Shown here: positions 14,933-60,731 of the stretch, in pieces | Layout of the letters: every line of letters starts with the position of its first letter | Position numbering within the stretch: the first letter of the stretch is position 1 | NCBI GenBank assembly: GCA_963778955.1 | Contig: CAVZWI010000001.1 | Location: forward strand, 562,383-626,382 | Length of the DNA: 64,000 nucleotides | Direction: 5' to 3' | Origin: an uncultured Chloroflexia bacterium | GTDB taxonomy: Bacteria; Chloroflexota; Limnocylindria; Limnocylindrales; CSP1-4 | Position numbers and translations under genes: made by a program | Notes under the pieces: generated by a model | Seen by the model: the letters and a program-made list of their open reading frames with translations, nothing else | What the model was told of the DNA's origin: nothing | Database searches by the model: none

Positions 14933-15103
14933 TGAGGACAACTTGTGGCGTGTGGACAACTTGGGGATATGTGAGCACACAACACGGACCAAGGCATGCC
15001 AGACATGATCGAGGTTGACTGGAACGACCAGGCGCCGAACGTAGCCGTCGAGGTCTCGGCGCTGAAAGCCGGCGTGGTCGACCACAACCCACTCGGTGGA
15101 CAA
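14933..15103. promoter_or_regulatory. cluster of three DnaA-box-like 9-mers (TGAGGACAA, TGTGGACAA, GGTGGACAA)
   Basis: The sites are at 14933-14941, 14951-14959 and 15095-15103. TGTGGACAA is the reverse complement of TTGTCCACA, the high-GC DnaA-box variant. All three share the extended motif GGACAAC[T/G]TG. Confidence 0.45.
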
Positions 15104-34111: not shown

Positions 34112-34488
34112 GGGGATGCGTGGTCTCGACAGGGCCCCAAACCCGAAGAACGCGAGTCGAGGTTGCCATCGGGCCTCGTTAATCAGGTGGCACCAAGAAG
34201 TAACTGGCAACAACCGCCAGCCTGCTCTCGCCCTCGCGGCCTAAGGCCGTAAGGTGAGCGTGGAAACGGCCTCGTCCTCGCGGGCCGCGGAAGCGTCACT
34301 TAGCGAGGATGCGCTCCGGGTCAGCGTCGCGTAGCTCGGAGTCAAGCCCGCAAGGGGACGTGACCTGGATCCTGCGGCACGGTGCCGATGCTGGTCCGCA
34401 GGATCGACGACAAATCATCGGATACGCTCGTAGTGGTCTTCGGCAGAAGGTTCTGGACGGGGAGTTCGACTCTCCCCCATCTCCACCA
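34112..34488 (+). ncRNA. ssrA: transfer-messenger RNA (tmRNA)
   Basis: The 5' end is GGGGATGCGTGGTCTCGACAGGG. The 3' T-arm and acceptor read GGACGGGGAGTTCGACTCTCCCCCATCTCCACCA. The internal tag ORF 34206-34244 is GGC AAC AAC CGC CAG CCT GCT CTC GCC CTC GCG GCC TAA, giving GNNRQPALALAA. A TATAAT box is at 34095-34100. It is immediately downstream of smpB. Confidence 0.9.
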
Positions 34489-45250: not shown

Positions 45251-45853
45251 ATGTCGGCTGCCGCGCGGGAGATGGTCGTGGAGAGCGTGCGGGTGCACAT
45301 GCTCTCGTCGCAACACGTGGTCATCCTGCGCGAAGCCCACGATGAACGCTACCTGCCCATCTGGATCGGCAGCTGGGAGGCGCAGTCGATCGCCATGAAG
45401 CTGCAGGGCGTGGAGGCGGAGCGCCCGCTCACCCACGACCTGCTGACGACCATCCTCTCGGACCTGGGCGTCAGCGTCCGCCGCGTCCTGATCTCCGACC
45501 TGGCCGACGAGACCTACCGGGCCCGTATCGTGCTGGTACAGGGTGGCAGCGACTTCGAGATCGACGCGCGTCCCAGTGACGCCATCGCGCTGGCGGTGCG
45601 GGTCGCCGCACCCATCTTCGCGACCGAGGCGGTGCTCGATCGCGCCGGCGTCATCCCAGAGGCGGACGAGGACGAGCGACTCAGCGTCTTTCGGGAGTTC
45701 GTCAACTCGTTGGAGCCGGGATCAGGTGAGGGGAGCGGGCCCGGCGGGACGCACCCAGGAGGACCATCGGGCGGTCCCGGCTCCCGTGGTGAGCCAGACC
45801 CGGACGAGCGCCCGCTCGACGACCGACTGGGCGACGAGGACGAGGACTGCTAG
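45251..45853 (+). CDS. bifunctional nuclease (BFN/DUF151) domain protein with an acidic Gly/Pro-rich tail
   Basis: 200 aa; HVVILREAHDERYLPIWIGSWEAQSIAMKL...RPLTHDLL...YRARIVL...IDARPSDAIALAVRV. Confidence 0.8.
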   Translation: MSAAAREMVVESVRVHMLSSQHVVILREAHDERYLPIWIGSWEAQSIAMKLQGVEAERPLTHDLLTTILSDLGVSVRRVLISDLADETYRARIVLVQGGSDFEIDARPSDAIALAVRVAAPIFATEAVLDRAGVIPEADEDERLSVFREFVNSLEPGSGEGSGPGGTHPGGPSGGPGSRGEPDPDERPLDDRLGDEDEDC

Positions 45854-46659
45854 CGCGGCCCGGAGCCGTCATCGGCCAGGATGGGGTCGCCGCGTCGCAG
45901 GGCGGAGGCGCGATCCGCCCACAGGCGCAGACGCAGTGCCCAGAAGTCCCTGATGGCGCGCAAGACCACCCGCGGATCAGCGCCCGACGCCGTGCCGGCC
46001 GTGCGCGGGTAGTGCGGCACGCCCTCCTCGGCGATGACCGCACCGCCGGCGCCGACCTTGATGAGCAGTTCGGCCGACAGGAAGGCGCCGCCTGATTCGA
46101 CGCGCACGCCCTGGAGCGCGCCTCGTCGGAAGAGCTTGCAGGCACAGTCGGGATCACGCACCGCGAGCCCGAAGAAGACACGCAGCGCGAAGCGGTAGGC
46201 GCGCGCGTAGGCCAGGCGGATGGCCGGATCGGCACGCTCGATGCGGTAGCCGACGACCACGTCTGGGCGTGCTGCATCATCGAGGCGGGCCGTCAGGCGC
46301 GCCAGGTCGGCGATGCGGAACTGCCGGTCGCCGTCGGTGAAGCAGATCAGTGGAAAGCGTGAGGCGGCGAGCCCGGAACGGACGGCCGCGCCATAGCCCT
46401 GGTTGACGCGGTGGTGTACCACACGCACGACGTCGGGGTAGGTCGTCGTCAAACGGTCGGCGATCTCCCCGGTGCCATCGGTACTGCCGTCATCGACGGC
46501 GATGATCTCGAAGCGCGCCGCCAGGCGTGGCAGTTCGGCTCGCGCCTCCTCCACGAGGGACTCGATATTGGCAGCCTCGTCGTGGGCGGGAAAGAAATAG
46601 CTCAGCGCCTCGACCCGCGTGGGCTCGAGGGGGTGGGGGAGGTCGGGGGTGTCAGGCAC
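45850..46659 (-). CDS. family-2 glycosyltransferase, polyprenyl-phosphate sugar synthase-like (Ppm1/DPM1/GtrB type)
   Basis: 269 aa, soluble. Contains IIAVDDGSTDGT, FTDGDRQF (DXD-like) and CACKLFRR. It sits next to GT-C membrane enzymes. Confidence 0.8.
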   Translation of the reverse strand: MPDTPDLPHPLEPTRVEALSYFFPAHDEAANIESLVEEARAELPRLAARFEIIAVDDGSTDGTGEIADRLTTTYPDVVRVVHHRVNQGYGAAVRSGLAASRFPLICFTDGDRQFRIADLARLTARLDDAARPDVVVGYRIERADPAIRLAYARAYRFALRVFFGLAVRDPDCACKLFRRGALQGVRVESGGAFLSAELLIKVGAGGAVIAEEGVPHYPRTAGTASGADPRVVLRAIRDFWALRLRLWADRASALRRGDPILADDGSGPR

Positions 46660-46683: not shown

Positions 46684-48202
46684 TCACTGGGTCTTGCGCG
46701 CCACCACCCGGTAGAGCTCGGCCGCCACCCCCGGCACGCGCTCCAGCTGGTAGCGCTCACGGAGGGCGCCCAGGTCCTGGTCCAGGCGGATGACGTAGAC
46801 GGGCCGAAGGTCGAGGTAGCGCTCGATGGCCGCCTCCACGCTGCCCAGGCCATCGTCGAGGATGTCGCGGTCGTCGATGATGGTGACATCCTCGCGCCGG
46901 CCGTCCACCCAGCGGCCATACCACAGGGGCGTGGAGAACGACCACCACGAGAACACGACCGCGTCGGGTGCCAGGGCATCGAACGTGCTGTCGACGATCT
47001 GCCGGCCCCAGGTGTCGGCCGAGGCATCGAGGTCGTGGTAGCGGCTCGCCGCAGGAAGCACCACCAACACGAGCAGCACGGCAGACAGTGTCCCAGCCAC
47101 CACCTTCGCCCCGCCGGTCCCGGCCCGCCGGTCCAGCAGCTCGGCCAGGGCATCCGCGGCGGCCTCGGCGGCCAGCGCCACCCACAGCGCCGCCATCAGC
47201 AGTGGTACCAGGTAGTAACGCTCGATGGCGGCGTTGGGATAGCCGATGGCGAAGAGCCAGGTGCTGCCGAACCACAGCAACGACAGCACGGTCCGACGAG
47301 GGTGTCGCACGAGCCCTGCTACCGCGCCCGAAGCAGCCAGGATGGAGAGCAGCCCCAGGTTCCGACCCAGTTCGCTGCTGATGCCGGCGACGACGTCGGC
47401 GAGCGGCGGCAGTGGGCCCATGGAGCCCTGGAACTGTTCGCCCAGGACGACATACCAGAAGGCGTCCCAGGTCGCCGGGTGGGCGTAGTCCAGCGGCGGG
47501 TCCATGGCCGAGCGCAGCGGCAGGTACAGGTAGACCAGGCTGGCCGTGATCGACGATCACGGCGATGCATAGCAGCACCAGCCGCCATTCTCGCCACAGG
47601 ATGCGAGGCGCGACCAGCAGGAGGTAGACAGCGATGCCGGGCGCCAGCAGCAACGTCAGCGCGTGATTGCCCAGCGAGAGGCCGAACACGAAGGCGGCAG
47701 CCACCAACCAGCCTGCCGCACGGCGGAGATCGTGCTCGCGGCCACCGGCCCAGGCGCCAAGCAGCACCAGGAGCAGGGCCGCCATGAAGACATGCAATGC
47801 GTGTGGGTCGGCGCGCTGTCCCCAGTGCCAGGCCACGGGTGTCAACGCGAAGGTCAGGCCCGCCAGCAGGCCGATGGCCCAGCGCCGGGTGATCTGCACC
47901 ACGCTCGCTGCCAGGAGTGCGGCGGCACCGGCCATCAGCAGGGCCGAGAGCAGGTCGGCCCGGTAGGCTTCGTTGCCGAAGGGCGCCAGCAGCACTGAGC
48001 CCAGCCAGGCCAGCAGCGTGTAGGTCGGGTAGCCGGTGGGGTGGGCGATCCCCAGGGTGCTGCCGATGGCCTGGAACTCGGCGGTGTCCCACAGGCCCAC
48101 GTCCGGCAGCAGCGTGCGGGCATACAGCACCAGCGCCACGCCGAACACGGGCAGCGCCGCGAGGGCATAGCCGGTCGCCCCGCCGTCTCGCGGCCTCACC
48201 AC
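46684..48202 (-). pseudogene. DUF2723 / TMEM260-like GT-C membrane glycosyltransferase gene with a 1-nt frameshift near 47545-47562
   Basis: The N-terminal part is in ORF 46757..48202 (…LPDVGLWDTAEFQAIGSTLGIAHPTGYPTY…LLCIAVIV) and then turns to junk. It continues in ORF 46684..47505 (…ITASLVYLYLPLRSAMDPPLDYAHPATWDAFWYVV…). The 1519-nt span is 3n+1. Confidence 0.7.
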
Positions 48203-49606
48203 CCCAGCGTCACGCCCCAGAAGACACCCCAGGCGTTGATGGCGATCGAGGCCGCCACCAGACCCACCGACCTGACACCCATGCCCAGGCGGGCGATACC
48301 GAGCGCCACGAGCACGACCGCGAAGGGCGCGAAGTCATTGCTGAAGCGGTAGCCGAACTGGACCCAGCCTTGGCTGAAGTGCATGAGGTCGATCAGGGCG
48401 ATCGAAAGCACCGCCAGTGCCGCTCCGGCCACGACGCGTCGCCGCCAGTCCCGCAGCAGGATGGGGACCATCAACAGGTAGGCGGGGCTGGTGAGCAGGA
48501 TGCTCATGCCGATGGGATCCGGCTGCAGTAGCGGGCACTCGCGGTCGAAGAGCCGATCCGGGCCCGACGCCCTCGGCAGCGCAGGCGGGGTCATCAAGCA
48601 GCGGCATCCTGGGCAGCTGGGCCAGCATGACGCCGGCGTTCTGGGGGATGTAGCGCGGATCCTCGATCGACCAGTCAGGGTGCACCAGCTCGGGACGCGG
48701 CCGGTACTCGACCTCGTAGAGATAGTCATAGGCAGGATGGAACACCGCCCCCGCGGTGACGAGGTTGTAGCCGAGCAGCAAGAGCACCGGGATGAGCGCC
48801 CCGGCTCCAGCGCTCAGGGCACGTCGTGGCCACGACCCGCCAGCGCCGACGAACACGAAGAACGGCGCTCCGAAGATGGTCGTGAGGCGGGCGATGCCGG
48901 CGGTGCCGAAGGCGAGCCCAGCCACGAACCCACGGCGAACGGCGCGCTGTCCATCGGCGCGGAGCGCGAGGCCGATGGCGACGAAGAGGAAGGTCGACGC
49001 CACCACGTGGGCCAGGAACCAGGTCGTGCCCAGCATGGCTGCGTACCAGGCCACGGTGCCGAAGCCGTAGAACAGCGCGCCCAGCAGTGCCGCGTCGCGG
49101 CGTGGCGCGACCGCCAGCAGGACCCACCAGCACAAGGCCACATTGAGCGCCCCCAGGGCTGCTGCCACGGCGGCTGCGTTGGTGTCCAGGCCCCAGACCG
49201 CCACGAACGGCAGCAGGATGATGGCCGGCAGCGGCGGGAATGGCACCTGGGCCCGGCCGGGAGTCGTCGGCAGCACGTCCTGGAAGTAGTCGTTGCGATA
49301 CGGGCCCTCGCTGACAGGGTAGGCGATCTCCGTCCGGCCATGCAGGAAGGCGTCGGCCTGCCAGACGAAGTGATCGTAGAAGTCCGTCCGGCCGGGGTTG
49401 GAGCTGAAGTACACGAGCGCCGCCAGCGCGAAGAGCCCGACCGCCACCCAGCCCGGGTGCGTCCGCTGCAGGAACCTCTCCAGTCGGCCGTGCGGCTCCA
49501 CGGGAACGGATGGCCCGGCGGTATCGGGGCCCGTTGATATACTCGCGCTCACCTCAACGCTTTCCCAGGAGGCAGGTCGTCTTCGGTGACAACGCCCCTC
49601 GCGCAA
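48196..49606 (-). pseudogene. polytopic GT-C-like membrane glycosyltransferase gene with a 1-nt frameshift at the GGGG run near 48587-48590
   Basis: ORF 48335..49606 is membrane-protein-like up to ...MLAQLPRMPLLDD. ORF 48196..48729 continues with ...PALPRASGPDRLFDRECPLLQPDPIGMSILLTSPAYLL... The 1411-nt span is 3n+1. The start is more likely GVG-context GTG 49552, because 49606 would overlap the divergent gene. Confidence 0.55.
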
Positions 49607-52600
49607 GGGGTCGGCCGTCGCCCCGGGGAGCCGGTTCGTCCCCTCGGGGTGCTCGCCCTCAGCCCCGCTCTCATCGTTCTCTTGCTCGCAGGATTGGCAC
49701 TGCGGCTAACTATCGCATACGTGCTCTTCCCGGCCTCGGGCTTCGAGTCGGACCTGGCCTCGTATGCGTCGTGGGCGGCCACGCTCGCTGAGCATGGCCC
49801 GAGCGGCTTCTATGCGAATGCCGGCTTTGCCGACTATCCCCCGGCCTACCTCTACCTGCTATGGATGGTAGGTATGCTCGCTGGTGCCGGTGCGGACCCG
49901 GGCGACCTCATCAAGCTCCCGCCCATCCTGCTCGATATCGGGGTCGGCTACCTGGTCTACCGGCTGGTGCGTGGTTGGACCTGGCCGGGGGCCCGGAGCG
50001 AACGACTCGCCATCGCCGCCGCGGCGCTGTACCTCTTCAACCCGGTCTCCTTCTACGACTCAGCGCTGTGGGGCCAAAGCGACGCCGCCGGCGCCCTGGT
50101 GCTGCTGCTGGGGGTGGCCGCGCTCATCCGGGGCAACAGCGAAGGCGCTGCCGCCCTGGCCGCCGCCGCCGCGCTGGTGAAGCCGCAGTTCGGGGTCGTG
50201 CTCATCCCGCTGGTGCTCTTCGTGTTGCTCAAGCGGCACCTGTCGCGAGTGGGCTCCGGACCCAGCAACCGGCCCTGGGCGCCGGCGCCGCTGGCGCGTT
50301 GGCTGGCACGCGAGCAGGGCTGGCCACGGCTGCTGACTGCCTTCCTGGCGGCGTGGGTCGCGTTCTTCGTGCTGGCGCTGCCCTTCGGCATGGGGCCACT
50401 GGAGTACCTCGATCGCATGCTCGGCACCGCCGGCGGCTATGGCTACCTCACCGTCAACGCGTACAACCTCTGGGCACTGGTGGGCGTCGACGGCGCACCA
50501 TCATTGGCTGAGGCGTTCCACTGGATCGAGGACACGCTGCCGCTGGCGGGGCCCATCCCCGGGGTGGTCATCGGAGCCGTCTTGCTCGCGGTCGGATTCG
50601 GGTGGGGAAGCGTGCGTGCCGCGGTGCGTGACGACCGCTGGACCATCATCGTGGCCGCTGCGCTGCTGGCAGCCGCCTTCTTCGTCCTGCCCACGCGCGT
50701 CCACGAACGCTACATCTACCCGGTCATCGCCCTGCTGCCGCTGCTGGCGGTGGTGGCACGTCGCTGGGCGCTGGCACTTCTGCTGCTGAGCGCAGGCGCC
50801 TTCATCAACCTCCACGGCATCCTGACGTTGCCGCTCTACGGCACGCCCAACGTGGAGACACTGGCGGCCGGGGAGTGGTTCCGCACGCAGCCGCTCATCG
50901 TGGCGTCAGCCGTGCTGCAGACGTTGGTGACCGTCTGGATGGCGTGGCAGTTGCGTCCCTCGCTGCAGACGAGCCCGGACGGCTTCGACCGCGTCGCGGC
51001 GGCCCACCCGGGCTCCCTCGGGCAGATGCCGCCCGAGACGCTCTCGTTCAGAACCGACCCGCCGCCGCTACCGGCCCTGGCATCCGGGGCACCGAGTCGC
51101 ACCGACCGCCTGGTCGCCCGGCTGTCCTGGGGTTCGCTTCGGCGAGACCGCAGCGCCTCCCTCGCGGGCGAGACCGGTGGGCGCCTCGACCGCAAGGACC
51201 TGCTCATCCTGACGGTGTTGGTCGTCGTCACGCTCGTGGTGCGAGGTGCGCGCCTCGAGCAGCCGGTGCGCATGTACTTCGACGAGGTCTATCACGCGCG
51301 GACCGCGGCCGAGTTTCTGCAGGATTGGGAGTACGGCGAGCCACATGACATCTACGAGTTCACCCATCCCCATCTGGCCAAGTACGCCATGGCCTGGGGG
51401 ATCCGCCTGTTCGGCGGCAACGAGATCACCGGCAGCGCCGACCTCGGCGTGCCCGTGCTGGACGCGGCACTGGAGCGTCGCTGGAACCCCCCCGGCAGGG
51501 ACGCTGTGCGCAACGGCGATCGACTCTACATCGCCAGCGGCGACGCCCTGCGTGTCTTCGACCCCGCCACCGAGCGACTCCTGGCCGAGCTGCCGCTGGC
51601 CGCCACGGCGCTGGCCGTCGATCCGTCCGGCCATAGCCTCCTGGCCGCCGATGGCGAGGGGCGCCTGTACCGCCTGGACACCACCTCGCTCGATGCGCTC
51701 CGCCATGGCGAACCGGGCGCTGCGCTGCCCGAGGTGGTGGCGCTCTCGGCTGGGCCCGGCGCCTCCGTGCAGCAACTGCTCGTCACCGACACCACACTGG
51801 TGGCGGTCACAGCCGACGCCATCACCACCTTCGACCGCGAGACCGGCGCCCGGTTGTCACGGCGCTCGATCGTGGCACCGTCGGATGTGGTGGTGTTGCC
51901 CTCGGCCGAGCGCCTGGTGGTCGACACGCGGCAGCTCGGCGACGGCAAGGCGGCCGTCTCGCTCATCAGCGAGGCCCTTGCCGCCGATGCCGCCGCGACT
52001 GACAGCGGCGCACTGCGGACCTCCGACCCCGAGGAGCGCGCGCGCATCCGCGATCTGCTGACGACGGACGGCGTCGTGGTGGTGTCCGCGTTCCTCACGG
52101 ACGACGCTTCGGCGGCGCTGGCTGAGGCGATCGATGCCGGTCGGCTTCCGGGCGCGGTCATCGAACGTGGCCCGCTGCTAGCGGTCGCCGACGCTGCCGG
52201 CATCAGCCTGCTGGATGGCTGGACACTCGACCTCATCGACGAGATCCCGACCGACCAGCCCGTGTCTGCCCTGGCCAGCTCCGACCCTGAGGCTGGCGAA
52301 ACCACGCTGTACGGGGCCAGCGGTTCGTCTCTCGTCTCGCTGCCGATCAACGCCGACGGGCCCGGCTCCACGGGGTCGGTGTGGATGCCGGGTCCAGTGC
52401 ACGATGTCGTCTGGAACCAGTCGGCCGAGCTCGTCCACGTCCTCGGGGATGCACCAGGCGGCGGCCCCACCGTCTACGTCGTGGAGCCCAAGGGTGAGTC
52501 GGTCTTCATCGACGTACCCCTGGCCGCGCAGCCGGACTTCCTGCTCGCCGACACGCTGGCGCAGCGCCCTGACCTGGACCGGACCGAGGTGGTCGCCATC

Positions 52601-54742
52601 ACAGCTGAAGGCGACCTCACCACCATCGGTATCGGCGGCAACGCCTTCGGCTGGCGCCTGCCGGGCATGCTCATGGGCGTCCTGGCGGCGGCCCTGCTGT
52701 ACCTGTTGGCGCGCGCCTTGTTCGCCAGGCGAAGTGTCGCCGTCGTCACCGCGGTCCTGGTGGTTGCCGAGGGCATGCTCTTCGCCAACTCGCGGATCGC
52801 CATGAACGATGTCTACGTGACCACCTTCGTCGTGTTGGCGGTGCTGCTGTTCGCGCCCTTGTATCTGGCGCCGCGACGGCCCTTGACGGCAGCCGCGATC
52901 CTCCTCGCCGCCGGCGTCGCGCTGGGTCTCGCCCTGGCCTCCAAGTGGGTGGCGCTCTATGCCATCGGGGGTCTGGGCCTGCTGGTGTTGTTCCGCTCCG
53001 GACTGGGGCGGATCCTGGCTCTCACCGTCATGATCACCCTCACCGCCGTGCTGGGTTCGCTGGCCATTCGTGGCGGACCTGGAGACGACCCGGCACGCAA
53101 CTGGACCTTCCTGCTGCTGATGCTGCTGCTGACCAGCCTGCTTGCCGCGGCCATCGTGCGTCGTCCCATCCCGGTCACCAGGACCGAGGCCTGGCTGGCG
53201 GCTGGCATGCCAGCCGCGGCGGGTCTGGCGCTGGGCCTGGTGGGGAAGCCCCTCGCCGGGGCACTAGCCATCATCGTCGCTCTCGCCATCGGCGGTGTCG
53301 TGGTGATGGCCGGCAGCCTCGGCCGCGGTCCCTTTGCCGCCGACGCTCGCCAGCCGGCTCCGGGCACCAGTGTCTGGCTGCGGCCGGGGCCGGGGTTCGG
53401 GAAGGTCGTTCCCTGGTTGCTGACGCTGGTGGCCCTCACGGTCGTGCCGTTGGCCATCTATGTGGTCTCCTACGCGCCGTGGGTGGAGTTGGGCAATGCC
53501 TGGGGTCTGCCGCTGCTGGACCACCTGCCGGGCCTGCCCGCGTCGACGCCGGGTGGCCAGACGCTGGCCGCCCTGACCGAGTCGATGTACCAGTATCACG
53601 ACAACCTGCGTGCCGAGCACGCGGCCTCTTCGCCCTGGTGGGCCTGGCCCCTGGACCTGAAGCCGGTGTGGTTCTACCAGGGGCGCTACGACGACGGCAC
53701 GACCGGGCTCATCTACGATGCCGGCAACCTGGTCATCTTCTGGATGGGCCTCGCCGGCATGGTCTTCTCGGCATGGATGGCCTGGTGGCGTCGCAGCCTG
53801 CCGTTGACCATCGTGGTGATGATGTGGGTGGCGATGTGGCTGCCGTGGGCTCGCATCGATCGAGCCACATTCCAGTACCACGTCTACGCCAGCCTGCCCT
53901 TCCTGCTGCTGGCGTTGGCCTATCTGCTGGCGGAGCTGTGGCACGGACCATCAGCGCGCTCGTGGCTCCTGGCGCGCGCGGCCGCGGCGCTGGCGATCAT
54001 CGGCGCCCCGCTGCTGTGGCTGTTGCGCACGCCGCTCTGCATCCTCGCTGGGACGGCCGTGGCGAACCCCTCCGGTGTGGCCTGCTCATCGGAGGCCACG
54101 CGCACCGCGCAGATCAGCCAGGGTGGCGCCGTGGCCATGCTGCTGCTCGCGCTGGGCGTCGGCTTGGTGGCATACCTGGTCTGGCGCGCCGGCCGCAGCG
54201 GGGCTCGAGGAGCGGCCCCTGGGCGCCGCCGCTCGGTGGTGGCCCTCGTGGCCGTGGCATTGCTGACGCTCAGTGGTGTCATCGCGGCGCTGGTCATCCT
54301 CGATACCACCACGACCACCAGCCTGGTGTTGTCCTCCGATGTGCTGGCGCTGTCCGCGCTGGCAGTGCTGGCCGTGCCGGCGTGGCTGACCCTGCGCGCC
54401 CGTGACCCGCGTCGCTTCGTGCAGGGTGTCCTGGCCGCTGCGTCCCTATGGTTGTTGCTGTGGTACCCGAACATCTCGGGCCTGCCGCTGCCGTCCGACC
54501 TGGCCGGCATGTATCAGGGCCTGCTGCCGACCTGGAACTGGGACTTCCAGTTCTCCGTCAACACCGAGCCCGCCGCCGGGGGCGGGCTCCTCGACGCCGC
54601 CACCCTGGTGGTCGGCGGACTGACGCTGATCGTCGTGGCCGCGGTCGCGCTGGTGGCGCGCTCATGGGATCGTACGGATCCGGCCGCCGCGAGCGAGCAG
54701 CGACAGATGCCACCGGGGCCGGGGTCGGCGCCGATGCGCTAG
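49586..54742 (+). CDS. 1718-aa fusion of two GT-C glycosyltransferase modules: N-terminal PIG-V/Gpi18/DUF2029-like module plus C-terminal PMT (GT39, protein O-mannosyltransferase-like) module with a ~410-aa insertion in loop 1
   Basis: Residues ~40-460 read SGFESDLASYASWAATLAEHGPSGFYANAGFADYPPAYLYLLW...NPVSFYDSALWGQSDA.... Residues ~535 onward carry the PMT signature loop MYFDEVYHARTA...HPHLAKYAMAWGIRLFG, then an insertion (aa ~611-1018, nt ~51416-52639), then AFGWRLPGMLMGVLAAALLYLLAR...NSRIAMNDVY...ASKWVALY...SSPWWAWPL...WFY. There are more than 20 predicted TM helices. The alternative start is GTG 49649. Confidence 0.8.
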   Translation: MTTPLAQGVGRRPGEPVRPLGVLALSPALIVLLLAGLALRLTIAYVLFPASGFESDLASYASWAATLAEHGPSGFYANAGFADYPPAYLYLLWMVGMLAGAGADPGDLIKLPPILLDIGVGYLVYRLVRGWTWPGARSERLAIAAAALYLFNPVSFYDSALWGQSDAAGALVLLLGVAALIRGNSEGAAALAAAAALVKPQFGVVLIPLVLFVLLKRHLSRVGSGPSNRPWAPAPLARWLAREQGWPRLLTAFLAAWVAFFVLALPFGMGPLEYLDRMLGTAGGYGYLTVNAYNLWALVGVDGAPSLAEAFHWIEDTLPLAGPIPGVVIGAVLLAVGFGWGSVRAAVRDDRWTIIVAAALLAAAFFVLPTRVHERYIYPVIALLPLLAVVARRWALALLLLSAGAFINLHGILTLPLYGTPNVETLAAGEWFRTQPLIVASAVLQTLVTVWMAWQLRPSLQTSPDGFDRVAAAHPGSLGQMPPETLSFRTDPPPLPALASGAPSRTDRLVARLSWGSLRRDRSASLAGETGGRLDRKDLLILTVLVVVTLVVRGARLEQPVRMYFDEVYHARTAAEFLQDWEYGEPHDIYEFTHPHLAKYAMAWGIRLFGGNEITGSADLGVPVLDAALERRWNPPGRDAVRNGDRLYIASGDALRVFDPATERLLAELPLAATALAVDPSGHSLLAADGEGRLYRLDTTSLDALRHGEPGAALPEVVALSAGPGASVQQLLVTDTTLVAVTADAITTFDRETGARLSRRSIVAPSDVVVLPSAERLVVDTRQLGDGKAAVSLISEALAADAAATDSGALRTSDPEERARIRDLLTTDGVVVVSAFLTDDASAALAEAIDAGRLPGAVIERGPLLAVADAAGISLLDGWTLDLIDEIPTDQPVSALASSDPEAGETTLYGASGSSLVSLPINADGPGSTGSVWMPGPVHDVVWNQSAELVHVLGDAPGGGPTVYVVEPKGESVFIDVPLAAQPDFLLADTLAQRPDLDRTEVVAITAEGDLTTIGIGGNAFGWRLPGMLMGVLAAALLYLLARALFARRSVAVVTAVLVVAEGMLFANSRIAMNDVYVTTFVVLAVLLFAPLYLAPRRPLTAAAILLAAGVALGLALASKWVALYAIGGLGLLVLFRSGLGRILALTVMITLTAVLGSLAIRGGPGDDPARNWTFLLLMLLLTSLLAAAIVRRPIPVTRTEAWLAAGMPAAAGLALGLVGKPLAGALAIIVALAIGGVVVMAGSLGRGPFAADARQPAPGTSVWLRPGPGFGKVVPWLLTLVALTVVPLAIYVVSYAPWVELGNAWGLPLLDHLPGLPASTPGGQTLAALTESMYQYHDNLRAEHAASSPWWAWPLDLKPVWFYQGRYDDGTTGLIYDAGNLVIFWMGLAGMVFSAWMAWWRRSLPLTIVVMMWVAMWLPWARIDRATFQYHVYASLPFLLLALAYLLAELWHGPSARSWLLARAAAALAIIGAPLLWLLRTPLCILAGTAVANPSGVACSSEATRTAQISQGGAVAMLLLALGVGLVAYLVWRAGRSGARGAAPGRRRSVVALVAVALLTLSGVIAALVILDTTTTTSLVLSSDVLALSALAVLAVPAWLTLRARDPRRFVQGVLAAASLWLLLWYPNISGLPLPSDLAGMYQGLLPTWNWDFQFSVNTEPAAGGGLLDAATLVVGGLTLIVVAAVALVARSWDRTDPAAASEQRQMPPGPGSAPMR

Positions 54743-54768: not shown

Positions 54769-55992
54769 TCAGTCGGCCTGCTTCGCGACATCCTCCTCGT
54801 CCTGGCCCGAGTCCGGTTCGGGCGCCCGGGCCGGAGGCTCGGGGATCTCGGCGTCGAAGCCCGAGGGCAACGAATCGGACGCGGCAAGGCGGCGGATGAC
54901 GAAGCCGTAGTACTCCTCCACCTTGGCGGTGATGTTCTCCCAGCTGAACTGGACGGCACGCTGCCGTCCTGACTCGCCCATGCGCTCGCGCAGCGGCATA
55001 TCCCGCAGCAGGGTGCCCAGGGCGGCCGCCAGGGCTTCGGTGTCCCGCGGTGGCACCAGCACCGCCTGCTCGTTGCGTCGGACGACCCCCTTGTAGCCGT
55101 GGATGTCACTGCAGACGATGGGTGCCCCGGCGGCCATGGCCTCAAGCAGCACGATACCGAACGACTCCTGCCCGGTCGCCGGCGAGGCATAGATGTCAGC
55201 GCTGGCGAAGGCGCGTGCCTTGTCGTGGTCAGAGAGCCGGCCCAGCATCTCCACGCCACCCAGGCGTCGTGACTGGATGTAGCGCCTCGCCTCGCCTGAT
55301 TGCGGCCCATTGCCCACGATCAACAGCCGGCAACCGAGCCCCTCGAGGCGCAGCTGGTAGTAGGCCCGCAACAGGTACATCAAGCCCTTGCGACTCTCGA
55401 AGCGGCCGACGAACAGGATGTTGGGGATGCCATCGCTCCAGCGCGCGAACGGGGGCACGTCATCGAACTGCGCCAGGTCAACGCCATTGGGGATGACCTT
55501 GTACTCACCGGGGAAGTAACGCGAGATGAAATGTCGCGCGGCGGCGCTGACCGCGATGCGGCCATGCAGGCGGCCGGCCGGCGTGACCATGAAGCGCTTG
55601 CCGAACTCGTAGGAGGGGCTGAAGCCGGAGTAGGCGTGGAAGGTGGCCACGTTGACCGCCTTCGAGTGGCGCAGGATGACCAACGAGAGGAAGGGCACGA
55701 AGGGCTCGTGATAGTGGATCACGTCGAATCGCTCGCGCTGCAGCATCTCCTTGACCAGGTGCCCGTAGCGGTGCGAGACCGTCAGCGTGCCGACCGAGCC
55801 ATTGGTGGGCACGCTCCAGCCGTAGCCGAGCCGGATGATGTCGCCCTCGCTGGAGCGCTGCGGACCGTGGGTGGAACTGATGATGCGGACGTCGTGGCCG
55901 CGTTTGACGAGGTTCTCGTAGAGGTAGCCGACGTGTGCGTTGACGCCACCAGGGAGGGGAAAGATGTACGGCGTGACCAGGCCGATCTTCAT
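54769..55992 (-). CDS. GT4 glycosyltransferase, PimA-like (phosphatidylinositol alpha-mannosyltransferase-like)
   Basis: 407 aa. The N-terminus is MKIGLVTPYIFPLPGGVNAHV. The C-terminal EX7E-type region is ESFGIVLLEAMAAGAPIV. It is the last gene of the inositol-lipid operon, and its ATGA overlaps the PHP gene stop. Confidence 0.8.
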   Translation of the reverse strand: MKIGLVTPYIFPLPGGVNAHVGYLYENLVKRGHDVRIISSTHGPQRSSEGDIIRLGYGWSVPTNGSVGTLTVSHRYGHLVKEMLQRERFDVIHYHEPFVPFLSLVILRHSKAVNVATFHAYSGFSPSYEFGKRFMVTPAGRLHGRIAVSAAARHFISRYFPGEYKVIPNGVDLAQFDDVPPFARWSDGIPNILFVGRFESRKGLMYLLRAYYQLRLEGLGCRLLIVGNGPQSGEARRYIQSRRLGGVEMLGRLSDHDKARAFASADIYASPATGQESFGIVLLEAMAAGAPIVCSDIHGYKGVVRRNEQAVLVPPRDTEALAAALGTLLRDMPLRERMGESGRQRAVQFSWENITAKVEEYYGFVIRRLAASDSLPSGFDAEIPEPPARAPEPDSGQDEEDVAKQAD

Positions 55993-56828
55993 CCCGACCC
56001 ATCCTCGGGCGGCAGGCCCGCAGCCGCGCGGTCGAAGTGGACCGGCCGCTCGCGGCCACCGGGGTAGCCCAAGTCGCGGCCGGTGCCGTCACGCCGCACC
56101 TTGCCACCCACTTCGGCTACGACCGCGGCCAGGTTCTTGCGCTGTTGTTGCGCGAACATCTGGAACTGTCCCGTCCAGGGGTAGGCCGCACCCTCCCAGC
56201 GCGTGTCACGCTCGGCCAGCGCCCGGCGCAGGCTGGCCTCCACGCTGCCGCGCCGTTCGATGATGGTGACGGTCGAGCCCACGTTCGAGGCCTTGTGGGC
56301 GTCAGAGCCACCGGTGGCCGCGATGCCCAGTTCCTCGGCCAGGGCGGGAGCCTTGCGGCTCCAGTGCATCCGCGCCGTGGTGGGGTTGAAGCCCTCCATG
56401 CCGTCGGGATGGAAGATGGCATCGGGCTCAGCCATGAGCCTGCGGATGCTGCGCTCGCTCGCGCAGAGTGGATAGGGCGGCAGGGGGTGGGCCAGGATGG
56501 CCAGCCCGCCTTGCTCGTGGATCATGGCGATGGAGTCCTTGAGCGAGTGCCAGGGGCGGATACGCTTGCGCATGTAGAGGCCCAGCAGATGGCCACCGCG
56601 CGTGGAGATCTCCTCAGCCACGATCACCTCGATGGGCCAACCGTGACCCTCGGCGATGGCCGCCCCGGCCACTGCAGCATCCATGCGCTCGTGGTCGGCG
56701 ATGCCGACAGCATCGAGGCCCCGCACGATGGCGGCCTTGATCATCGTCTCCACGTCGTCGATGCCATCCGAGGCGAGCGTGTGCACATGCGGGTCGATGC
56801 GCATCATGGTTCTGGTCTCGTCGCTCAC
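55989..56828 (-). CDS. PHP-domain metal-dependent phosphoesterase
   Basis: ORF 55989..56996. GTG 56828 forms a GTGA overlap with the upstream stop (alternative ATG 56807). Motifs: MRIDPHVHTLASDG, GIADHE, ILAHP, GGSDAH. Confidence 0.8.
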   Translation of the reverse strand: MSDETRTMMRIDPHVHTLASDGIDDVETMIKAAIVRGLDAVGIADHERMDAAVAGAAIAEGHGWPIEVIVAEEISTRGGHLLGLYMRKRIRPWHSLKDSIAMIHEQGGLAILAHPLPPYPLCASERSIRRLMAEPDAIFHPDGMEGFNPTTARMHWSRKAPALAEELGIAATGGSDAHKASNVGSTVTIIERRGSVEASLRRALAERDTRWEGAAYPWTGQFQMFAQQQRKNLAAVVAEVGGKVRRDGTGRDLGYPGGRERPVHFDRAAAGLPPEDGSG

Positions 56829-57814
56829 ACCGTGTCCTCGTCCTGCCAGATCGGAAAGAACAGTGTGGTCCATTGCTCGGGCGCGCGCGCGATGATGCGC
56901 TCGAATGCGCGGGCCTCCTGTTCCACGATGGCCCGCGTGGCCTCGCGTCGCGTGGCGCCCTCGGGCGGGCGCAGCTGTACGGTGTGCCCCAGCCACGCTC
57001 CGGGGCCGGTGCGCTCGATGGCCTGCAGGTACAGCGGCGCTCCCGTCTGCACGCAGAGCATGGCCGGCCCGATGGGCAGTCGGGTAGGGGCGCCGAAGAG
57101 TCGTACCTCCGTGCCGCGGCCGACGACGTTGCGGTCAGCCACGATCCCGACGGCCTCGCCACGCTCGAGGGCCGCGATGAGCGCCCCGGCCGCGTTCTCC
57201 ATCGGCACGATGGTGATCCCGAGCTCGTTGCGCACGCGGTCGAAGTAGGCGCGCGCCAGCGGCGCAGCGACGAACTCCATGGGGCCGGTGACCGGCAGCG
57301 ACCCGACACGCGACGCGTACAGCGCCGACAGGTCGACCGAGCCGAAATGCATCGCCATGTGGATAAGCCCGACCTGACCCGGCGCCCGAGGCGCGACCGT
57401 CTCTGCCGCCAGTGCCGGGTCCACCGGCAGCAGCCGCTGCCGAAGCTCCTCGCCGCTGTAGCGCGGTCCCATCGCGGCCTCGATGTACGTCACCACCCAG
57501 TGGCTGAACGCGGCCCGCACCAGGTGCTCCAGCGCCGCGCGGTCCCGGGCTGCTCTGGCCACACGTGGACTGGCCATGTCCTGCTCCACGAGCCAGCCAC
57601 AGACACGCTCCAGGTTGCGCCGAACCTGGCGTCGCCGCTCGGGGAGCACCAGGTAGAGCCCGGCGCCAAGCACGAAGGCGACCCGGAACTGGGGCTTGTC
57701 GGGCAACCTGCGCATCAACCACAGGCCGCCCAGGAGGAATCGAAAGGCGATCCGCTGAGGGAGGCTCAAGGGTGGACTCGGCGGCGGCGCGGGTGTCTCG
57801 AAGTGGTCAGGCAT
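56825..57814 (-). CDS. LpxL/HtrB-family lipid acyltransferase (PatA-like), copy 1
   Basis: ORF 56825..57838; start ATG 57814. N-terminal membrane-associating helix, HxxxxD-type region (MAMHFGSVD), and PTRLPIGPAMLCVQTGAPL. Confidence 0.8.
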   Translation of the reverse strand: MPDHFETPAPPPSPPLSLPQRIAFRFLLGGLWLMRRLPDKPQFRVAFVLGAGLYLVLPERRRQVRRNLERVCGWLVEQDMASPRVARAARDRAALEHLVRAAFSHWVVTYIEAAMGPRYSGEELRQRLLPVDPALAAETVAPRAPGQVGLIHMAMHFGSVDLSALYASRVGSLPVTGPMEFVAAPLARAYFDRVRNELGITIVPMENAAGALIAALERGEAVGIVADRNVVGRGTEVRLFGAPTRLPIGPAMLCVQTGAPLYLQAIERTGPGAWLGHTVQLRPPEGATRREATRAIVEQEARAFERIIARAPEQWTTLFFPIWQDEDTV

Positions 57815-58814
57815 GGGCGTTCTCCGTGGCGGCGGCACGGCGGGTCAGTGCCTCGGCCTCAGCGGCTGTCGCGGGCCACATGGGCTTGAAGGTGTACCAC
57901 TGCTCAGGCGCTTCGCCGATCATCGTCTCGAGGGCAGTGGCGATGGCTTGGGTGGCACGGCCGACCGCCGCATCTGATGTATCGGCCACGAAGATCGGCT
58001 CGTACATCATGGGGTCATAGCGGCCATCGGGTCGGCGCCTGGCGAGAACCGGCACGATGACGGCACCGGTGCGTGCCGCTAGAGTGGCCGGGCCCGCCGG
58101 TAGTGTGGTCCAGTCGCCGAACAGCTTGACCGGGACGTCGTCGGCTCGGTAGCCCCAGTCGACGACCATGCCCAGGATGGCCGGTCTGCGCATGACGCGG
58201 AAGATCTCGCGCAAGCGGCGCCAGGGGATGATGGTCACACCCCAGCGCGCACGGGAGGCGTTGAGCAACTCGAAGAGCTCATCGAAGGCCGAGTCGTCGG
58301 CCAGGCCGTAGGTGGGGATGCCTTGCTGGGCATAGGCGCCGGCGAAGACATCGATGCTGCCGATGTGGCCACTGACCGCGATGATGCCCCGCCCCTCGTC
58401 CCGGCACTGCCGCCACACCGCCATGAAGCGTTCGTGCTGCGCGCCTGCCAGTTCCACCAGCTTGACCGGCTCATCGGCCGGCAGGCCCGGCAGGCGCATC
58501 AGCTCGATGGTGAACCGGGAATAGGTCGCGTAGATGCCGCGTGCCATGGCCGCCACGGCGGCGTGCCGCGGCGGCAGGCCCAGGACGTGGGCGGCGTTGG
58601 CGGTGACGATGCGACGCTTGGAGGGCCACAGGTAGTAGCCGGCAAGGAAGCACGCTCGAGCGACCGGCTCGCTGACACGCAGCGGCACGCGGACCAGCAG
58701 CGCCGAGCCGGCACGGAACCACAGGACGACGAACCGCTCCCAGGCCCGGGAGACGGCTCTCCCGAGCCGCCCTCGCTGACCTCGACGATGTGGTGCGTAG
58801 TCGACGCCGGACAC
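57807..58814 (-). CDS. LpxL/HtrB-family lipid acyltransferase (PatA-like), copy 2
   Basis: 335 aa. Contains SGHIGSIDV and TTLPAGPATLAARTGAVIVP, with the same architecture as copy 1. Confidence 0.8.
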   Translation of the reverse strand: MSGVDYAPHRRGQRGRLGRAVSRAWERFVVLWFRAGSALLVRVPLRVSEPVARACFLAGYYLWPSKRRIVTANAAHVLGLPPRHAAVAAMARGIYATYSRFTIELMRLPGLPADEPVKLVELAGAQHERFMAVWRQCRDEGRGIIAVSGHIGSIDVFAGAYAQQGIPTYGLADDSAFDELFELLNASRARWGVTIIPWRRLREIFRVMRRPAILGMVVDWGYRADDVPVKLFGDWTTLPAGPATLAARTGAVIVPVLARRRPDGRYDPMMYEPIFVADTSDAAVGRATQAIATALETMIGEAPEQWYTFKPMWPATAAEAEALTRRAAATENAHA

Positions 58815-58825
58815 GTCCCTCCTGT

Positions 58826-60034
58826 TCAGGCGATGGTGATCGCCTCCTGCTCGGGTGAAGCGGCTCCCAGGGCAGCCGCTCGGACCTCGTCCGGATCGGC
58901 GCCGGTAAGGGTCGCATCATCCTCGCCCCGGATGAAGGCTTCCACGCGCTGTCGAGCCACGTCATCGTGGATCTGCAGTGGCGGACTCTTCATGAAGTAG
59001 GACGAGGCTGCCACGAGCGTACCCGACAAGCCGCGATCGAGACCGAGCTTGGCGCAGCGGATGGCGTCGGTGATGACGCCGGCGCTGTTGGGGCTGTCCC
59101 AGACCTCCAGCTTCAGCTCGACCAGCAGCGGCACATCACCATAGGTGGTGCCTTCGATGCGGATATGGCAGAACTTGCGGTCCTCCAGCCAGGGCACGTG
59201 GTCCGAAGGCCCCACGTGGACGTTACCCTCGCCCAGGTCGTAGTCGAGCATGGAGGTGACGGCGTTGGTCTTGCTGATCTTCTTGGACTCCAGCCGGTCG
59301 CGCTCCAGCATGTTCTGGAAGTCGGTGTTGCCGCCAAAATTCAGCTGATACGTGCGATCGACCCGGACGCCACGATCGTCGAACAGGCGGGTCAGCACGC
59401 GATGGCTGATGGTGGCGCCGACCTGGCTCTTGATGTCGTCGCCGATGACCGGCAGGCCGGCAGCCGCGAACCTGGCTTGCCACGCCGGCTCCCGGCCGAT
59501 GAAGACGGGGATGGCATTGACGAAGGCACAGCCGGCCTCGATGGCACGCTCCGCGTACCAGCGGGTGGCGGCCTCGCTGCCGACCGGCAGGTAGGAGACC
59601 AGCACGTCGACCGCGGCCGCTTTGAGCGCCGCGGACACGTCGACCGCCGCTTCGGGGGACTCTGGCACGACCGCGGCCACGTACTTGCCGATGCCATCCA
59701 TGGTGGGACCGCGCTGCACCGTCACGCCGATGCGCGGCACGTCCATGAAGCGGATGGTGTTGTTGGGCTGGGCGTAGATGGCCTCGCCGAGATCCTTTCC
59801 GACCTTGTTGGCATTGACGTCGAAGGCGGCCACGAACTCGATGTCGCGCACGTGGTAGCCGCCCAGGTTGACGTGCATGAGGCCCGGTACGAAGGTGTCC
59901 TCGGGGGCGTCCTGGTAGTAGTAGCGGCCCTGGATGAGGCTGCTGGCGCAGTTGCCCACGCCGACGATGGCGACTCGGATCGACTTGGCGCCCGAGGGGA
60001 TGGGCGCCCGACCGTTGCCGTTGTGCTTGCTCAT
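58826..60034 (-). CDS. ino1: myo-inositol-3-phosphate (inositol-1-phosphate) synthase
   Basis: 402 aa; [56 protein letters not shown]. Confidence 0.9.
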
Positions 60035-60065
60035 CTTGTGATGTCCCTGCCTTTCGTTGCGTTCG

Positions 60066-60731
60066 CTAGTCCTGGTGGGGGTTGGCGGGTTGCGAGACGA
60101 CGAATCGGATCCGTTGGATCACGGTGATGGTGGCCAGTACAGCGATGAGGCCAAGGCCAGCTGCGAGGATGAGGCTGCCGAGGTCGGCCAGATCGGGGGT
60201 GACGCCGAAGATGCCGGCCCCGACCAGGGCGATGCCGAGGATGACCGTGCGGACTTCGCGCGGGGCGAAGCCGATGGCGGCCATGCCGGTGCCACTGGAG
60301 AAGCCCAGCGATTCACTCTTGGCGCGCGTGTAGCTGACCATGAAGGCCGACACCAGCGCTGCTCCTGCCAACCAGGCTCCGAGGTCGAAGCCGGCCTGCG
60401 TGGCGCCGATGATGATGCCCACGTAGACGACACCTTCACCCCAGCGGTCGAAGGTGCTGTCCATGAAGGCGCCGAGCTTGCTCACCTGTCCGGTGGCGCG
60501 TGCGACCGCACCGTCGAACATGTCGAAGCCGGCCCCGACCGTGGCCACGATGCCGGCCAGCAACCACCATTCGACTGCGGCCAGCAGGCCGCCGAGCGAG
60601 GCGATGCCAAAGCCGATGAGCGTGAGCATGTTGGGGGTCAGGCCGGCTCGGGACATGGCCAGGGCGATCGGCTCGACCTTGGCGCGGATGCCGGAGCGCT
60701 GCTCCGGGGAGATGAATGATCCCTTGCTCAC
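60066..60731 (-). CDS. CDP-alcohol phosphatidyltransferase (phosphatidylinositol-phosphate synthase-like, PgsA1-type by context)
   Basis: 221 aa, about 6 TM helices. The signature is D-G-x2-A-R-x8-G-x3-D-x3-D ([31 protein letters not shown]). It is adjacent to ino1. Confidence 0.85.

Follow-up and report, generated by a model that had tools for sequence, protein, structure and literature searches.

The giant gene and its reading frame

The window analysed here is a stretch of 64,000 nucleotides (nt) from an uncultured Chloroflexia bacterium (Chloroflexota; Limnocylindria; Limnocylindrales; CSP1-4; assembly GCA_963778955.1, contig CAVZWI010000001.1, positions 562,383 to 626,382 of the forward strand), and its main feature is a giant fusion gene (49586..54742, + strand), which starts with GTG, stops with TAG and codes for a protein of 1718 amino acids (aa). 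GT-C glycosyltransferases normally carry one catalytic core per chain. This chain is composed of parts of known kinds, a PimE/ALG6-like GT-C module followed by a GT39-type protein mannosyltransferase (PMT) with a WD40/YVTN-like beta-propeller in its first external loop (EL1), in an arrangement that is undescribed: nothing was found in the searchable literature on GT-C fusions with propellers, on glycosyltransferases of Limnocylindria or on PMT in Chloroflexi.

The frame is open without internal stop, the GTG is preceded by an AGGAGG sequence at a distance of 13 nt, and the GC content at the three codon positions (0.72/0.52/0.87) is a coding signature for a high-GC genome. Long open frames alone prove little in this DNA of ~70% GC, as illustrated by an antisense frame of 2265 codons that is open in a related locus (L072). 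A protein search with the giant protein returned 793 matches, and the 120 best of them are almost all 1.55-1.9 kaa long, with query coverages of 85-100% and identities of 44-88%; homologs align from residue 1, and more than 200 relatives are full-length (1.7-1.9 kaa). The named relatives among these 120 belong to Chloroflexota or to Candidatus Limnocylindrales metagenome-assembled genomes (MAGs), and database annotation is generic only ('phospholipid carrier-dependent glycosyltransferase', 'Gpi18-like mannosyltransferase / PMT'). When genomes were scanned with each species represented once, at least 579 relatives emerged, and the 80 top-scoring loci belong almost without exception to Chloroflexota/Limnocylindria. 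An exact-sequence look-up of the 1718-aa protein found no identical entry, and the gene context was compared via orthologs of 88% and 73% identity; the invariance of residues was judged over 41 homologs.

The gene is a single uninterrupted frame in 35 of 43 near-complete loci, which come from independent assemblies; the frame breaks in the other eight are scattered, occur mostly in long-read assemblies and never fall at the module junction. Since many full-length relatives come from independent genomes, an assembly artefact does not account for the fusion, and the double-GT-C chain is confirmed as a real single gene. The one uninterrupted open reading frame (ORF) claimed by the first-pass annotation is thus borne out by the frame itself, its codon GC, the full-length homologs and the intact loci.

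Two divergent relatives, P0172 (2012 aa; L084 2631-8669) and P0200 (2390 aa; L085 1333-8505), are only 36-41% identical and yet have their parts arranged in the same way. P0200 has an expanded linker, with ~870 residues of unassigned sequence between the N-terminal module and the first transmembrane segment (TM1) of the PMT module, and P0172 is devoid of the variable multi-TM segment described below. Hundreds of relatives, single frames and divergent variants with the same part order indicate that the fusion is old and under selection. In this family, the N-terminal module is never free-standing but in every case precedes the PMT module in the same chain.

Some seemingly stand-alone 'PMT + propeller' proteins of ~1000-1300 aa (P0125, P0138, P0148 and P0313) were treated as gene calls shortened by truncation or a frameshift and not as natural splits: P0148 has fusions of 1780-1830 aa as its nearest relatives, and at the P0313 locus the DNA of the N-terminal module is present upstream in broken frames, other genes being broken too. 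Two more matches that seemed to start at residue ~510 (L072 and L073) were rejected, as each has an unbroken ORF of 1737 aa or more. In a long-read MAG contig (L083, 6464-8001 and 11981-15034), the N-terminal module was left uncalled, the PimA-like gene was truncated and a PHP gene was fused to a PatA-like one; because of such broken or artificially fused genes, domain-architecture variants in long-read assemblies of this kind need checking.

The N-terminal GT-C module

That two GT-C modules share one chain is supported by Pfam, structure prediction and Foldseek alike. The hydropathy of the protein reveals a multi-TM block at aa 20-455, followed by a polar, Arg-rich stretch. The block corresponds to the N-terminal module (aa ~20-455; 49643..50950, + strand), whose AlphaFold2 model (aa 1-468) is all-helical, with a mean local confidence (pLDDT) of 80 and a predicted TM-score (pTM) of 0.84. 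The first Foldseek match of this model is yeast ALG6 (6snh; E 4e-6, query TM-score (TMq) 0.68), followed by PIG-U (ranks 2-4 and 6), Gpi14/GPI mannosyltransferase I (9wno), PimE (9dm5; E 5e-4, TMq 0.47) and ALG3, all at identities of 11-18%; OST, ArnT, Emb and Pmt4 rank lower. All the active enzymes among these top matches use lipid-linked glycan acceptors. At the sequence level, the module found no solved structure at E<=10, either as a single sequence or as a 17-sequence profile, and it is therefore placed only by fold comparison and Pfam.

In Pfam, PIG-U (PF06728), a family of the GT-C clan, matches aa 82-291 (profile positions 56-254 of 378) with E 4e-6 and 26.5 bits, against a gathering threshold of 24.5. 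Alg6_Alg8 (PF03155) stays well under its cut-off in the window protein (E 0.2), and GT87 (PF09594, formerly DUF2029) gave no match to the window module at E<=0.05. Among 17 homolog N-terminal modules, PIG-U is matched in 13, Alg6_Alg8 in 10 (E<=0.05) and GT87 in five (best 2.5e-5), so that the label 'PIG-V/Gpi18/DUF2029-like' previously given to this module was close, with PIG-U and Alg6_Alg8 ahead of the former DUF2029.

Invariant residues of the module include D56, nine residues past TM1 and accompanied by Y/F60 (Y60 in the window protein), the motif D83-Y-P-P, D158, K199 and H373-E-R-Y. In PimE, where the catalytic Asp is at the tip of the first juxtamembrane helix and the donor phosphate is bound by Lys/His, the residues D58/Y62, K195 and H322 (PMC12041525) are resembled, by eye only, by D56/Y60, K199 and H373. 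Like PimE (GT87, 9DM5), ALG6 (6SNH), GPI-MT-I/Gpi14 (9WNO), ALG3 and PIG-U, the module is an all-helical, membrane-only GT-C unit of ~450 aa. It also seems to share with them an Asp conserved where EL1 begins, as well as a Lys and a His as candidates for binding the donor phosphate. It differs from them in its weak and ambiguous Pfam assignment (PIG-U > Alg6_Alg8 > GT87) and in being always fused. PimE itself uses a polyprenyl-phosphate (polyprenyl-P)-mannose donor and a phosphatidylinositol (PI)-mannoside acceptor, and elongation of protein O-mannose has also been reported for it. A sub-classification of the two modules into GT-C_A and GT-C_B was dropped as an argument, because such a split failed to separate them; PimE, ALG6, ArnT and PglB are grouped together in GT-C_A (PMC12041525).

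The PMT module

The stretch that follows (aa ~456-535; 50951..51190, + strand) is an Arg-rich, presumably cytoplasmic linker with the lowest conservation of the protein (0.44). It leads into the C-terminal module (aa ~536-1718), which is shown to be a divergent GT39-type PMT by its matches to Pfam PMT (PF02366; E 6e-18, 65.6 bits, gathering threshold 22.7) and PMT_4TMC (PF16192; E 1e-9, 38.5 bits, gathering threshold 32.4). The best sequence match to a solved structure is yeast Pmt1 (6P25; 2e-9). In this half, hydropathy shows one TM at 539-557, none from 558 to ~1020 and then ~15 more hydrophobic segments.

TM1 and the head of EL1 (aa ~536-612; 51191..51421, + strand) match positions 2-61 of Pfam PMT and contain 28 invariant columns out of 77. 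Here the sequence VVFDEVHF...HPPLAK of Pmt1 aligns to MYFDEVYH (aa 563-570)...HPHLAK (aa 594-599), with FDEV at aa 565-568, so that D566 of the catalytic DE motif (D566 E567; nt 51281-51286, + strand) lies at the catalytic Asp of the Pmt1 DE motif (D77). The TM2 region of Pmt1 aligns ungapped from aa ~1029, within the TM2-TM5 region of the PMT core (aa ~1019-1160; 52640..53065, + strand), which contains the invariant D1075. A variable multi-TM segment (aa ~1161-1270; 53066..53395, + strand; conservation 0.56) separates it from external loop 4 (EL4) and the PMT_4TMC region (aa ~1271-1490; 53396..54055, + strand; 50 of 220 columns invariant), which holds SSPWWAWPLDLKPVW and RATFQYH (R1426, F1429).

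Mutagenesis of the Mycobacterium tuberculosis enzyme (MtPMT) showed that D74, D176, R441 and Y444 are essential, and these residues are equivalent to D77, D189, R649 and F652 of yeast Pmt1 (PMC12331936). D1075 falls ungapped onto Pmt1 D189 and through that equivalence corresponds to MtPMT D176. RATFQYH can be set against RQMFLHH of Pmt1 with a local score of 34, which is not above that of shuffled sequences (29.5 +/- 5.6), and it is located within the significant PMT_4TMC match. D566, E567, D1075, R1426 and F1429 are invariant, and the PMT module looks catalytically intact, with the DE base, the Asp of the second external loop (EL2) and the R-x2-F of the fifth (EL5) apparently kept. Both GT-C modules appear intact at the level of sequence, and they are shown to be about equally conserved (0.71 in the N-terminal module, with 77 invariant columns, vs 0.75 in the PMT core).

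The protein ends in an extension (aa ~1491-1718; 54056..54739, + strand) with 4-5 further TMs and a conserved end motif (RARDPRRF...WYPN..GLPLP...LLPTWNWDFQF), and this end of the protein aligns weakly to the C-terminus of Pmt1. This extension of ~230 aa, like the PI-related gene cluster next to the giant gene, had gone unmentioned in the first-pass annotation.

In summary of its relation to known GT39 PMTs (MtPMT/Rv1002c; yeast Pmt1/Pmt2, 6P25), the module shares with them the PMT and PMT_4TMC domains, the EL1 DE motif followed by HPxLAK, the EL2 Asp and, apparently, the EL5 R-x2-F/Y, and would also share an N-in topology and a polyprenyl-P-mannose donor. Unlike them, it has a propeller of ~410 aa in EL1 and no MIR domain, and it comes with the variable multi-TM segment, the C-terminal extension and the N-terminal GT-C module.

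The beta-propeller of external loop 1

The Pfam PMT match is split: profile positions 2-61 correspond to aa 544-610 and positions 80-198 to aa 1018-1136, meaning that the protein carries an insertion of ~410 residues at a place where ~18 are found in the profile. Likewise, the gap between the HPxLAK and TM2 elements is ~415 residues here vs ~30 in Pmt1. The insertion (aa ~613-1018; 51422..52639, + strand) starts right after HPHLAK and is acidic and soluble. The AlphaFold2 model of aa 606-1018, built on a 20-sequence alignment, has 28-29 strands, with a pLDDT of 90.2 and a pTM of 0.89, and it gave 1399 Foldseek matches at E<=1e-3 against the PDB. The top ones are seven-bladed WD40/G-beta propellers (E ~1e-11, TM-score 0.5-0.7, ~11% identity). 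In agreement, a profile of the full family matches 1L0Q, an archaeal S-layer protein with a YVTN-type propeller (E 2e-5), and some homologs are annotated with the PQQ_2 propeller (PF13360). The insertion is therefore modelled with confidence as a roughly seven-bladed, closed WD40/YVTN-type beta-propeller with blades of four strands, interrupted by a helical sub-insert at aa ~787-850 (model residues 182-245). Conservation is higher in the two terminal blades next to the membrane core (0.61 in the first, aa 613-700, and 0.63 in the last, aa 926-1018) than in the middle (0.47).

The earlier description of a soluble, beta-rich, repeat-like segment inside PMT loop 1 (nt ~51416-52639) agrees with these data in its boundaries (Pfam split, Pmt1 alignment), in its solubility (no TM from 558 to ~1020, acidic composition) and in its fold. 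Its unusual character holds relative to canonical PMTs (yeast Pmt1, Pfam PMT) only, because the whole architecture is usual throughout a large family of Limnocylindria proteins and the segment is normal in the closest homologs. The role proposed for this architecture at the same time, in substrate channelling or built-in acceptor recognition, is plausible.

To our knowledge, accessory domains of the PMT family have so far been only MIR or TPR modules. Like the propeller, the MIR beta-trefoil of PMT/POMT and the TPR domains of TMTC1-4 and TMEM260 are soluble extracytoplasmic parts of a GT-C enzyme with a presumed role in engaging the acceptor. However, the propeller has a different fold and is inserted in EL1 directly after the catalytic motif, whereas MIR sits in a later luminal loop and the TPR domains of TMTC1-4/TMEM260 are C-terminal. 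The mycobacterial Emb and AftD proteins are also large (>1000 aa) combinations of a GT-C core with soluble periplasmic domains, but these are C-terminal or inter-loop carbohydrate-binding modules, there is one GT-C core per chain, and the Foldseek similarity of these proteins to the N-terminal module is low (TMq 0.42-0.46).

Neighbouring genes

Upstream of the giant gene lie three genes on the - strand related to polyprenyl-linked sugars or glycosyl transfer. The first codes for a GT2 protein that resembles polyprenyl-phosphate-sugar synthases (45850..46659; Pfam Glycos_transf_2), whose best PDB matches are ArnC and Dol-P-Man synthase and which is found in 69 of 82 loci. The second encodes a TMEM260-like GT-C protein (46757..48202; Pfam TMEM260-like 2e-25; human TMEM260, 9rql, 2e-17), and the third a multi-TM putative glycosyltransferase similar to LA_3751/3752 (48199..49552; NCBIfam 3.5e-7). 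The latter gene is frameshifted near 48473-48552, where its 451-aa ortholog from L001 splits into two tblastn frames; the listed ORF product has 423 aa and a nonsense-like tail. This frameshift could be either a sequencing indel or the mark of a pseudogene. The LA_3751/3752-like gene and the giant gene are divergent, with starts ~33 bp apart (49552-49586), which places both promoters inside the neighbouring coding sequence or else implies leaderless transcripts.

Directly downstream, after a gap of 26 bp, a convergent cluster of the PI/AcPIM1 type (54769..60731, - strand) codes for enzymes like those of the synthesis of phosphatidylinositol mannosides (PIMs). It is composed of a PimA-like GT4 (54769-55992; 2gej/4n9w), a PHP phosphoesterase (55989-56996; syntenic in 70 of 82 loci), two PatA-like acyltransferases (56825-57838 and 57807-58814), Ino1 (58826-60034; E 5e-168; TIGR03450 558.8 bits, just under the cut-off of 638) and a PgsA1-like phosphatidylinositol phosphate (PIP) synthase of the CDP-alcohol transferase type (60066-60731; PgsA1 6h53, 2e-16). 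The GT4 matches M. smegmatis PimA over its full length with E 6e-57, as compared with 1e-14 for PimB', and the best model for both acyltransferases is that of the PIM acyltransferase PatA (NF005919), though under its cut-off. An early-PIM-type set (PimA, PatA, PgsA1 and Ino1 types) is thus encoded together in a complete block. In mycobacteria, the early PIM operon is pgsA1-patA-pimA (Rv2612c-Rv2610c), plus ino1. The window has all of these types in one co-directional block, but in a Chloroflexota host, with two PatA paralogs, with ino1 included and with the PHP gene inside the block, between the PatA-like and PimA-like genes. As the PIP phosphatase step of mycobacteria is not known to have an assigned enzyme, the PHP phosphoesterase is, speculatively, a candidate for it. 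No PimB'-like gene was found near the cluster, whose GT4 is single, and no other subunits of the glycosylphosphatidylinositol (GPI) transamidase were found at the locus. In the searchable literature, no report ties PIMs or mannosylated proteins to Chloroflexota.

This neighbourhood is syntenic in nearly all Limnocylindria loci with enough flank, even at ~36-40% identity of the giant protein. The PimA-like gene is present in 73 of 82 loci, being missing only where the downstream flank is short and in two others (L017 and L063), where PIM genes were not found within 10 kb.

Other features of the window include a conserved 708-aa protein (43084-45210, + strand), which is syntenic in 65 of 82 loci and whose gene is flanked by those of DciA and the bifunctional nuclease, with one central TM and a probably extracytoplasmic C-terminal half, for which neither Pfam nor NCBIfam gave a match, a tRNA-Sec gene with anticodon TCA (15005-15099, - strand) and a tmRNA gene (34112-34488, + strand) with the tag peptide GNNRQPALALAA.

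Proposed function and alternatives

The giant protein is likely to initiate sugar chains on proteins or lipids of the cell envelope and to lengthen them. It is proposed, with a probability of roughly 0.5, to be a bifunctional extracytoplasmic mannosyltransferase that uses a polyprenyl-P-sugar, the PMT module initiating and the N-terminal module elongating; the sugar is most likely mannose. By reference to the experimentally determined topology of MtPMT (PMC12331936), the N-terminus would be inside, the active loop of the N-terminal module outside, the Arg-rich linker inside and TM1 of the PMT module crossing outward, so that the propeller and the two active sites would all face the outside of the membrane. 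The donor would be made by the neighbouring ArnC/Dol-P-Man-synthase-like GT2 and then flipped, and the PMT module would put the first mannose on Ser/Thr of exported proteins. The propeller may lie over the acceptor groove, holding or selecting the acceptor, a role like that of MIR (in a different loop) or TPR domains in eukaryotic O-mannosyltransferases. The PimE/ALG6-like module would add the next sugar, its acceptor being the new O-mannose, the PI-mannosides of the adjacent PimA/PatA/PgsA1/Ino1 genes, or both. The free-standing PimE of M. tuberculosis, a PIM enzyme that builds higher PIMs, is reported to elongate protein O-mannose as well (PMC12331936), a precedent that makes both the pairing of the two activities and a dual acceptor range plausible. 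The fusion would keep both activities at 1:1, at one site and on a common donor pool.

Several observations count against this proposal. The donor sugar is ambiguous, because ALG6, the best fold match, transfers glucose, and the closest match of the GT2 is ArnC. The PMT module scores only 42.5 bits with the NCBIfam Pmt equivalog NF058602 (cut-off 800), a far sub-threshold match that is the sole NCBIfam match of the whole protein and that makes it a divergent relative, not an ortholog; at such a distance from actinobacterial Pmt, the acceptor and even the sugar specificity could differ. The N-terminal module meets the criteria of no catalytic family cleanly, its best Pfam match being the non-catalytic PIG-U. 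Finally, dnaN, recF, DciA and BFN (bifunctional nuclease) are as syntenic as the PIM genes, the region near dnaA/dnaN being conserved as a whole, and the divergent variants P0200 and P0172, both on short contigs, are without these neighbours. For these two reasons, synteny was downgraded as proof of functional coupling, and the adjacency of the PIM genes is weak evidence.

It may be instead that the whole protein acts on PI-anchored glycolipids of the PIM/lipomannan type and not on proteins, which is the main alternative, though considered less likely. PimA, PatA and PgsA1 would make AcPIM1-type primers inside the cell, which would be flipped, and mannan would then be extended by four GT-C modules (the two of the giant protein, the TMEM260-like and the LA_3751-like ones), with the propeller binding the growing glycan. 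The complete PI/AcPIM1-type set adjoining the giant gene, with PimA in most loci, points in this direction, as do the inositol-monophosphatase-family gene that follows the divergent P0172 and the fold of the N-terminal module, which matches enzymes with lipid-linked acceptors. Mycobacteria have a comparable GT-C set in PimE/MptA/MptB/MptC, which the four modules of the locus would parallel. Against it, all characterised GT39 enzymes, as well as TMEM260, glycosylate proteins, and the catalytic positions of the PMT module are invariant, as is the EL4 segment implicated in peptide binding. The cluster contributes a single GT4 without a PimB'-like gene nearby, its adjacency is shared by unrelated genes, and L017, L063 and both divergent variants are without PIM genes within the available flank. 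The wider claim, that Limnocylindria build a PI-anchored mannolipid or lipomannan-like lipoglycan which the giant enzyme assembles outside, its PMT module acting on glycolipid or glycan, or on both proteins and PI-mannosides, is somewhat more doubtful still.

A further explanation is that the PMT module alone is catalytic, the N-terminal module being a PIG-U-like, non-catalytic domain for lipid binding or scaffolding. It might serve as a docking site for a glycolipid or the polyprenyl-P-sugar, or stand in for the partner of dimeric PMTs. PIG-U, a non-catalytic subunit with a GT-C fold in the five-subunit eukaryotic GPI transamidase, is indeed the sole above-threshold Pfam match of the N-terminal module and occupies Foldseek ranks 2-4 and 6, and eukaryotic PMTs act as dimers (PMC7759382). 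Nevertheless, the module is conserved as strongly as the PMT core, which argues against a mere scaffold, the invariant Asp after TM1, DYPP, K199 and HERY stand at positions typical of catalytic or phosphate-binding residues of GT-C enzymes, and its best fold match, ALG6, is an active enzyme, so that this explanation has only a small chance of being correct. As for the possibility that the frame is open by chance in DNA of 70% GC, or that two or three genes were joined through faulty sequencing or assembly, the long spurious ORFs common in this DNA and the frameshift of the adjoining gene would favour it, but the hundreds of collinear full-length homologs from independent projects, the predominance of intact frames with breaks away from the junction, the origin of the seeming stand-alone forms in broken gene calls, the coding signature at third codon positions and the confident AlphaFold2 folds of both modelled pieces leave it practically refuted.

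Significance

Limnocylindria are uncultured bacteria that are abundant in soil and freshwater. Their giant protein unites in one chain two GT-C cores, one PimE/ALG6-like and one of the PMT type, with a propeller, making it a natural test case for acceptor selection and for the coupling of initiation and elongation at the outer surface of bacterial membranes. The presence of a PI/AcPIM1-type cluster beside five modules of the polyprenyl-sugar pathway predicts that mannosylated proteins, PI-mannosides, or both, occur in Chloroflexota, and the interest of the system would grow if PIM-like chemistry in this phylum holds. Should the protein act on a lipoglycan, its PMT-type module would be the first case of a GT39-type enzyme whose acceptor is not a protein, and this would be evidence against envelope chemistry of the PIM type being an actinobacterial speciality.

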